From Escherichia phage PHB10, in the sequence record MK524177.1: 57,228 nucleotides of DNA, one strand, 5' to 3'. This document shows positions 14,588 through 15,136 of the stretch, in pieces; the stretch's first letter is position 1, and every line of letters starts with the position of its first letter. The notes under the pieces are model-generated. The model had not been told where the DNA came from, did no database searches, and saw only the letters and a program-made list of their open reading frames with translations. The translations under genes and the position numbers were made by a program.

Positions 14588-15001
14588 TTAATTGCCGTAC
14601 AGCCGATTGAAAAGGGCATTTTTTATCGCATCAGAATCAATCGGATCCAGGTTTAACCAGGTCAATGTCTCACGATTCTTTTCTGCATTGAAATCTGAAA
14701 ACACACCATGGATATCACCGCTATCAGGTGAGTAGAGAACAGCAATATTCTGTTCTGGACAACTGTGTGGTTTACATCCTGACAGCGCAATATACTTTTT
14801 GCCCGCAACTGTTACTTCGGTTGATGGCGTGCTCGTGCCACCACTTTTTACCCATGCAGGTAGTTTGTTTTTACTAATCAGCTGGGAGTAGCTTTTAGAC
14901 GTGCTTTTTGCACTGGCGAAGTCAGAAAGAGACTGCCCCTCGTCGGCAAGAGCACTGAAAGATACAAAAGCCATAGCAGCGATAATCACTTTACCTTTCA
15001 T
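14588..15001 (-). CDS. Ivy-family periplasmic lysozyme inhibitor, putative
   Basis: Signal peptide MKGKVIIAAMAFVSFSALA; CKPHSC loop resembling the Ivy CKPHDC motif; about 137 aa. Confidence 0.6.
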   Translation of the reverse strand: MKGKVIIAAMAFVSFSALADEGQSLSDFASAKSTSKSYSQLISKNKLPAWVKSGGTSTPSTEVTVAGKKYIALSGCKPHSCPEQNIAVLYSPDSGDIHGVFSDFNAEKNRETLTWLNLDPIDSDAIKNALFNRLYGN

Positions 15002-15136
15002 GTTAATCCTCACTCCATAAATTTGCACTGGCGAAGTCAGAAAGAGACTGCCCCTCGTCGGCAAGAGCACTGAAAGATACAAAAGCCATAGCAGCGATAA
15101 TCACTTTACCTTTCATGTTAATCCTCACTCCATAAA
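14907..15136. repeat. exact 115-bp tandem duplication (14907..15021 and 15022..15136) covering RBS, start codon and signal-peptide coding region of the Ivy-like gene
   Basis: The two units are base-for-base identical on direct reading; flanks differ. Confidence 0.95.

Follow-up and report, generated by a model that had tools for sequence, protein, structure and literature searches.

Does the exact 115-bp tandem duplication at the 5′ end of a putative lysozyme-inhibitor gene represent a regulatory arrangement, a very recent accident or an artefact of assembly, and what might the gene itself do for the prophage that carries it? These questions are raised by positions 14588–15136 of the 57,228-bp sequence of Escherichia phage PHB10 (MK524177.1; this whole stretch is referred to as the window), where a minus-strand gene of the Ivy family, here called ivy, lies between a lysis cassette and the terminase genes. 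A preliminary description had read the gene as a secreted moron (a plausible lysogenic-conversion gene) preceded by a decoy open reading frame (ORF), had explained the duplication as a very recent event, as a translational-coupling or upstream-ORF (uORF) arrangement or as an assembly artefact, and had proposed a comparison with related prophages. A very recent duplication and an assembly artefact both survived the present analysis, whereas an evolved uORF arrangement is disfavoured. The explanation that we consider probable, if with some reserve, is that the lambdoid prophage moron ivy underwent a private and very recent duplication, which left the gene intact and produced a short by-product without function.

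The duplication was present as first described. Tandem Repeats Finder revealed an exact tandem repeat at 14907–15136, with a period of 115, 2.0 copies, 100% matches and no indels, and direct string comparison showed that 14907–15021 and 15022–15136 are the same base for base. No other direct repeat of at least 40 nucleotides (nt) and no other long-period tandem repeat was found in the window, which is free of N or ambiguous bases; in shuffled sequences, the number of occurrences expected by chance for a 43-mer from the 115-bp unit was 0.00. On the minus strand, each unit opens with TTTATGGAGTGAGGATTAAC-ATG, followed by just over 31 codons, and contains the Shine–Dalgarno (SD) motif GAGG 6 nt 5′ of the ATG. 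The doubled content consists of the ribosome-binding site, the ATG and the signal-peptide codons of ivy, in agreement with the preliminary description. The junction shows zero microhomology (C/TTTATGG ... GCAAA/AAGCAC, with slashes at the unit edges), and either of the two copies may be the newer. An Rfam scan of the region returned no family overlapping the duplication. A terminator-like hairpin inside the unit (TGCTCTTGCCGACGAGGGGCA) was set aside, since it lies within the coding region of every single-copy gene and depends on G–U pairs.

The comparison with related prophages covered 35 related loci, namely 33 containing a 32-mer from the unit plus L014 and L017, and revealed the duplication in none of them (0/35); all of these loci are single copy. 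One copy each was found in the 10 Enterobacter genome loci encoding the identical protein and in the two loci with the exact large terminase of the window. The gap between the spanin gene and ivy measures 387 nt in relatives versus 502 nt here, a difference of exactly 115, and the unit is followed by AAGCAC, the single-copy continuation, in 33/33 pattern-bearing loci and by TTTATGG in 0/33. The 32-mer inside the unit occurred once per contig in 16 IMG/VR and 7 metagenome contigs; the junction 32-mer was not found in the metagenome collection, and neither a 41-mer nor the 32-mer from the unit was found in GTDB representative genomes. Look-ups with the exact small terminase and integrase of the window gave no record. 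Apart from the duplication, locus L010 matches the window base for base between 15021 and 13466 on the terminase side, and L005 differs on the lysis side at 2 of 3,095 positions; divergence from relatives starts about 1.5 kb downstream, inside the small terminase gene (terS). The duplication is private to this sequence, and because its flanks are essentially identical to those of single-copy relatives, the event is either extremely recent or non-biological.

Between these two origins, we think it likely that the duplication is real and recent. Base quality looks good, with no gaps relative to relatives over 7 kb and no Ns. An artefact of assembly or finishing, which we rate as unlikely but as a serious contender, would have arisen for example when contigs or ends overlapping by a k-mer length of 115 were concatenated untrimmed, the true sequence being single-copy. 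Neighbours in a de Bruijn graph overlap by k, and k = 115 is used in some pipelines. The exact 2.0 copies with 100% identity, the odd length and the lack of junction microhomology are all in keeping with such an origin, as is the restriction of the duplication to the window among the 35 loci; in addition, the window resembles a whole assembler contig with odd ends, both located in a lambda-M-like tail gene, with about 26 codons missing and the order circularly permuted. However, a de Bruijn assembler cannot make junction k-mers without reads holding them, so that a post-assembly join would be required. The window contains no Ns, no second duplication of this kind and no indels relative to relatives. 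No switch of lineage occurs at the duplication either, as both L005 and L010 match both flanks and divergence lies 1.5 kb away, and the upstream allele boundary (L002 type) lies 4–5 nt off the unit start, with no obvious graph branch point at the unit.

Two more specific candidates were tried and rejected. The duplication does not mark a boundary of recombination or of a contig chimera, since the same relatives match both flanks and divergence begins only in terS; nor does the unit edge coincide with the boundary of two upstream alleles, which would give a de Bruijn branch point, as the two are 4–5 nt apart.

The ends of the window were also informative about the molecule as a whole. Both ends (1–203 and 57105–57228, minus strand) fall in the lambda-M-like minor tail gene, and the PF05939 profile is matched at positions 1–44 at the window start and 71–108 at the window end. 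Closure of the window on itself as a circle was rejected: no terminal repeat was found, the ends do not join and gene M falls short by about 26 codons. Homology of relatives to the right arm (tail fibre, umuDC, csp and SRAP) ends at 42,506, 20 nt past the integrase stop; the junction lies at about 42,486–42,506. The distance from ivy to the K gene in a relative (about 16.1 kb) equals the distance in the window with its ends joined. The window looks like a single phage genome in circularly permuted (attP-joined) form, with its break in gene M; alternatively, two similar prophages may lie in tandem.

Analysis of the encoded protein revealed consistent membership of the Ivy family. The product matched Pfam PF08816 (Ivy) with 71.3 bits against a cut-off of 21 (E = 1e-19, residues 32–118) and E. 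coli Ivy in the PDB (1GPQ/1XS0) with E = 4e-24 and about 40% identity over residues 24–136. The AlphaFold2 (AF2) model had a mean predicted local distance difference test score (pLDDT) of 83.8, falling below 50 only for residues 1–19, and in a Foldseek search with this model the top 8 PDB matches were all Ivy (1gpq, 1xs0, 1uuz and 4ps6), with template-modelling (TM) scores of 0.71–0.80, the next match having E = 0.13. The exact protein is recorded in NCBI as 'MULTISPECIES: Ivy family c-type lysozyme inhibitor [Enterobacter]' and was seen on 124 contigs; its 90% cluster comprises 271 members from E. bugandensis, E. cloacae, E. asburiae, E. roggenkampii, E. hormaechei and others, which makes Enterobacter the host, and its PHROGs entry is phrog_13619 ('unknown function'). 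The score against the NCBIfam Ivy equivalog (NF007443) was 117.2 bits, below the curated cut-off of 180. Homology and the modelled fold together indicate a genuine Ivy-family member that is not an equivalog of E. coli Ivy. Neither the DNA nor the protein of ivy had a match in 50,697 sequenced phage records, no near match to ivy was found in E. coli genomes, and no description of a prophage-borne Ivy was found in the literature searched.

The N-terminus is secreted-looking: by its n–h–c layout and AxA site it reads as a Sec signal peptide, and homology to mature Ivy starts at residue 24. The inhibitory loop differs from that of the classical family. According to the literature, classical Ivy proteins share a strictly conserved CKPHDC loop without which they do not inhibit (PMC4262234, citing Abergel 2007; also PMC3660660). 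The canonical motif is not found in this protein, where Asp is replaced by Ser (CKPHSC), whereas both Cys, the Lys, the Pro and the key His are present. The K, P and H of the loop are invariant in all aligned relatives, and both Cys are present in all except the fragmentary P0017; loop position 5 is S, N, A or D among the aligned relatives and S, N or A in relatives of the same clade. These alignments place the gene in a distinct, uncharacterised Ivy subclade that retains the active-site-plugging His. The preliminary assignment to the Ivy-type inhibitors was thus borne out at the level of family, by Pfam, PDB match and fold, and not at the level of the equivalog or of the canonical loop.

The position of this clade next to lysis genes raises a second issue, which bears on the role of ivy and is independent of how the duplication arose. 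The endolysin of the window (16019–16558, minus strand) shows a weakly hydrophobic N-terminal stretch rich in Gly and Ala (AKLSTAVLGLILAGAPASLIL), after which comes an E-x8-D-x5-T motif (EGNSLTAYKDGGGIWT), and we presume from these features that it resembles a P21-type signal-anchor-release (SAR) endolysin. The phage-borne clade may act on a phage-relevant muramidase, not on animal lysozyme, although we regard this as doubtful; candidate targets would be signal-anchored endolysin that is encoded by the phage itself and leaks, tail lysozymes brought in by superinfecting phages, whose inhibition would amount to a Spackle-like exclusion, and host lytic transglycosylases. The clade does recur directly after lysis cassettes of unrelated backbones, with a GH24-type endolysin here and in L001–L010 and with GH108 in L019, where the homologue directly after the cassette is 55% identical (P0021, loop CKPHNC), and S, N or A at position 5 departs from the canonical motif against C-type lysozyme. 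Ivy proteins are described as inhibiting lytic transglycosylases at least weakly (PMC10139938; Clarke 2010, cited in PMC3660660), an anti-phage role has been proposed in a preprint for an Ivy-like protein whose loop reads CKANTC (10.1101/2024.04.20.590424), and T4 Spackle provides a precedent for a phage periplasmic lysozyme inhibitor (PMC7650644). However, the lysis–terminase junction is a hot spot for morons in general, occupied by unrelated cargo in sister phages, so that adjacency need not mean functional linkage, and the partner endolysins come from different families. The K-P-H core is kept, together with the His that plugs the catalytic site, as in true inhibitors of C-type lysozyme, and a 48%-identical relative lies in a non-phage chromosomal context (L018). 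A further version, in which the CKPH(S/N/A)C prophage Ivy clade is tuned to a phage-relevant hydrolase and the 115-bp duplication is a real, dose-changing mutation, seems to us improbable.

The phage of L019 contains a further gene of note, for a Pertussis_S1/Scabin-like ADP-ribosyltransferase toxin (549–1274), just upstream of its lysis cassette. In this phage, two candidate conversion genes, the toxin and the CKPHNC Ivy homologue, flank the lysis genes.

The 37-codon ORF created upstream of ivy was present as the preliminary description had it. Its stop had been placed 2 nt before the ivy start, which holds if counted from the last base of the stop to the first base of the start; a single nucleotide (15002) intervenes between the TAA (15005–15003) and the ivy ATG (15001). 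The reading frame shifts at the unit junction because 115 = 38×3+1, and the codons for NLWSED are the 5′ leader of the proximal copy (its SD region) read out of frame, the ivy SD (GGAGTGAGG) falling within the last codons of the ORF. The product had no Pfam match, and no record of it was found by exact-sequence look-up. RNA folding of the modelled leader gave an unpaired probability for the proximal SD of 0.14 in the two-copy mRNA versus 0.36 in the one-copy mRNA; translation of the upstream ORF would be expected to relieve this lower accessibility, and the stop/start geometry, with the proximal SD in reach, may favour reinitiation at the ivy ATG. The word 'decoy' thus fits the geometry, but functional support for it is none. 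Because none of the 35 related loci is duplicated, the product is unrecorded and the junction is absent from the metagenome collection, we interpret the ORF as an incidental by-product and not as a conserved uORF, and the proposed role as a functional decoy or coupling element was not upheld. That the duplication is a selected regulatory arrangement, either a leader uORF tuning Ivy by translational coupling or a source of a secreted peptide with a role, is very improbable: although the 1-nt stop–start spacing with the SD inside the leader is ideal for reinitiation, and the second SD is predicted to be less accessible without upstream-ORF translation, the arrangement is kept in no relative, the complete identity of the two copies implies no time for selection to act, and the ORF, without a family match, ends in out-of-frame read-through of the SD region.

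In the explanation that we prefer, that of a private and recent duplication sparing a prophage moron, the locus would be a cargo gene of an Enterobacter lambdoid prophage encoding a Sec-exported, periplasmic Ivy-family protein. Transcription of ivy in the lysogen would probably start from its own sigma-70-type promoter, supplemented by late read-through. The protein most likely protects the peptidoglycan of the lysogen, the His of the disulphide-constrained CKPHSC loop plugging the active site of C-type lysozyme, with weak inhibition of lytic transglycosylases as a possible further activity (PMC2267010, PMC10139938); the tolerance of the lysogen to host lysozyme would then be raised when the outer membrane is breached. 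A single, very recent 115-bp event would have copied a segment reaching approximately from the start of transcription to codon 32, leaving the promoter unduplicated. The Ivy sequence is unchanged, since SD, ATG and ORF are all complete in the proximal copy. Translation begun at the distal SD would yield a peptide of 37 residues, 18 of them following an intact signal peptide, and would terminate 1 nt short of the ivy ATG, and ivy would be translated both by direct initiation and by termination–reinitiation. The 37-residue product would be a functionless by-product and the net effect of the duplication on Ivy would be small, making the event nearly neutral.

Several observations weigh against this explanation. 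The duplication is seen in an assembled sequence, which does not prove it real. The zero junction microhomology weakens the case for a biological event, in that slipped-strand mispairing usually leaves some. The promoter matches the consensus at only 9 of 12 positions, which weakens the proposal of autonomous transcription, and the hairpin downstream of ivy has no U tract on the ivy strand. Finally, the loop departs from CKPHDC and the protein scores below the NCBIfam equivalog cut-off, which leaves lysozyme inhibition a conjecture from homology.

The genomic setting supported the preliminary placement of a secreted moron between the lysis cassette and the terminase genes, which was based here on PHROGs gene calls, a signal peptide read from the sequence, low GC content and the exchangeability of the slot. 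The large terminase gene follows that of the small subunit. GC content was 0.432 at 14001–15000, whereas it ranged from 0.53 to 0.57 over the structural genes at 2001–14000, and unrelated cargo fills the same slot in sister prophages with identical TerL (L011–L013, L015 and L016). The −35 and −10 blocks of the promoter-like site (Table 1) are kept across 15 upstream sequence variants while the spacer varies, a modest phylogenetic footprint that supports an autonomous promoter; the predicted transcription start falls approximately at the left edge of the duplicated unit. Because the region is AT-rich, the promoter-like site is conserved and the slot carries other cargo in sister prophages, ivy fits the picture of a classic moron. 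The hairpin between ivy and the convergent 86-aa ORF is kept in relatives, where most substitutions fall in the loop or at the base of the stem; the 86-aa ORF itself had no Pfam match.

Table 1 Features of the duplicated locus and its surroundings in the window.
Feature	Positions	Strand	Remarks
ivy-family gene	14588..15001	-	137 codons + stop; 19-aa signal peptide, 118-aa mature domain
Signal-peptide codons (MKGKVIIAAMAFVSFSALA)	14945..15001	-	Predicted cleavage ALA/DE; n-region MKGK, hydrophobic core, AxA motif
Disulphide-loop codons, CKPHSC (residues 76-81)	14759..14776	-	Corresponds to the inhibitory loop CKPHDC in E. coli Ivy
Proximal 115-bp copy	14907..15021		SD GGAGTGAGG and ATG (15001) used by ivy; codons 1-31 and first two bases of codon 32
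Distal 115-bp copy	15022..15136		Same SD, ATG at 15116; surplus copy relative to all relatives
Incidental upstream ORF, 37 codons (MKGKVIIAAMAFVSFSALADEGQSLSDFASANLWSED)	15003..15116	-	Signal peptide, 12 native residues, 6 out-of-frame residues (NLWSED), TAA
Promoter-like site CTGACA, 17 nt, TAGAGT	15146..15174	-	Consensus scan, 9/12 matches; just upstream of the distal copy
Hairpin between convergent ivy and 86-aa ORFs	14547..14580	.	13-bp stem; candidate shared 3′ end/terminator
Convergent 86-aa ORF, function unknown	14248..14508	+	Same AT-rich cargo block; phrog_32754, 184.7 bits, full length; gene called in L003, L014, L017
Small terminase subunit	13150..14136	-	Downstream of the cargo block; phrog_51; PF03592 in relatives
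Lysis cassette upstream of ivy	holin 16857→16555, endolysin 16558→16019, Rz-like spanin 16022→15504	-	PHROGs families; PF00959 on homologous genes in relatives

A second hairpin was observed in the spanin–ivy intergenic region on the plus strand, antisense to the late genes (15364–15380). This G+C-rich structure followed by seven T residues (GCCCTCCGGGTGAGGGC TTTTTTT) is kept in relatives, with changes in the loop, and could be the terminator of an antisense transcript from the convergent 86-aa ORF or of a plus-strand small RNA. Some of the related loci are decayed prophage versions: L010 (CP110983.1) lacks about 650 bp of the endolysin/spanin region and has a second holin-like gene after terS, and in L047 and L044 the sequence jumps to tail or umuDC while still at the terminase genes, leaving from terL in L047 and from a point just past terS in L044. 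All three retain ivy.

The window contains further cargo away from this locus. A metabolic-looking block of about 10 kb (about 21,900–30,700) lies between replication gene O (33115→32165) and antiterminator Q (19580→18747) and encodes a LysR regulator, an aldo/keto reductase, an amidohydrolase, an SMP-30/gluconolactonase-like protein and a BD-FAE esterase; so much non-phage cargo is unusual in a nin-type region. The interval from Q to the holin gene contains, all on the minus strand, an STnc100 small RNA, an isrI-like Hfq-binding RNA and a tRNA-Arg(TCT) (17258–17463, 17524–17621 and 17805–17881, respectively). STnc100 scored 74 bits against a gathering score of 47, and the isrI-like RNA 38.5 bits, below its gathering score of 45; the stretch matches the corresponding Gifsy-1 region at the DNA level. 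Genes umuD/umuC (Peptidase_S24 and an IMS-family polymerase; 45927–47695, minus strand) and an SRAP (YedK-like) gene (42701–43486, plus strand) lie between the tail fibre and the integrase, apparently in the prophage right arm, with cold-shock and YnfU-like genes between them in relatives.

As ivy is an already catalogued and named accessory gene of Enterobacter prophages, the main value of the present analysis is one of curation, and the duplication, a one-off, should not be read as regulatory design. If real, it would be a natural example of a fresh tandem duplication that spares a gene while creating a coupled leader ORF, of use only for a modest case study. Of more lasting value is the finding that temperate phages of a clinically relevant genus carry an uncharacterised subfamily of Ivy whose loop is non-canonical; the CKPHSC clade bears on whether the loop Asp is dispensable and on whether prophages raise the lysozyme tolerance of Enterobacter.

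Among known systems, lambda bor is a lambdoid moron at the lysis–cos/terminase junction with a cell-envelope product that acts in host interaction. It shares with ivy the slot directly after Rz, the AT-rich composition, promoter-like signals of its own and exchangeability among sister phages, but belongs to another protein family and is oriented opposite to the late genes, whereas ivy is co-oriented with them; the opposite orientation is taken here by the convergent 86-aa ORF. T4 Spackle (gp61.3) is likewise a phage-encoded periplasmic lysozyme inhibitor with a signal peptide (PMC7650644). In contrast to Ivy, it has an unrelated fold and inhibits T4's own tail lysozyme, gp5, by an allosteric mechanism in which the active-site cleft is not entered, and no evidence for a gp5-like target of the ivy product was found in this analysis.

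Among other Ivy proteins, P. aeruginosa Ivyp1 (PA3902; 1UUZ, 4PS6) shares the fold (TM 0.72–0.77) and the CKPH core, but has about 19–20% structure-based identity and is chromosomal, not phage-borne; this protein is reported to inhibit the lytic transglycosylase MltB besides lysozyme (PMC10139938, citing Clarke 2010). Plasmid-borne ivy genes (pSAbAus of Salmonella Abortusovis, PMC10977856; 35 PLSDB plasmids) likewise encode an Ivy on a mobile element, where it is regarded as a virulence or fitness accessory, but they are canonical alleles, only about 38% identical to the protein described here, and are carried by plasmids and not prophages. E. coli Ivy (YkfE; 1GPQ/1XS0) is in the same Pfam family, with about 40% identity over the mature domain, the same predicted fold (TM 0.75–0.80, root-mean-square deviation about 2 Å), a signal peptide and a disulphide loop with K-P-H. 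It differs in its loop, CKPHDC there and CKPHSC here, and in the equivalog score, 117 bits here against a cut-off of 180. E. coli ivy lies in the core chromosome and belongs to the Rcs regulon (PMC10139938), whereas the gene described here lies next to the lysis cassette of a prophage, with a short putative promoter region of its own.

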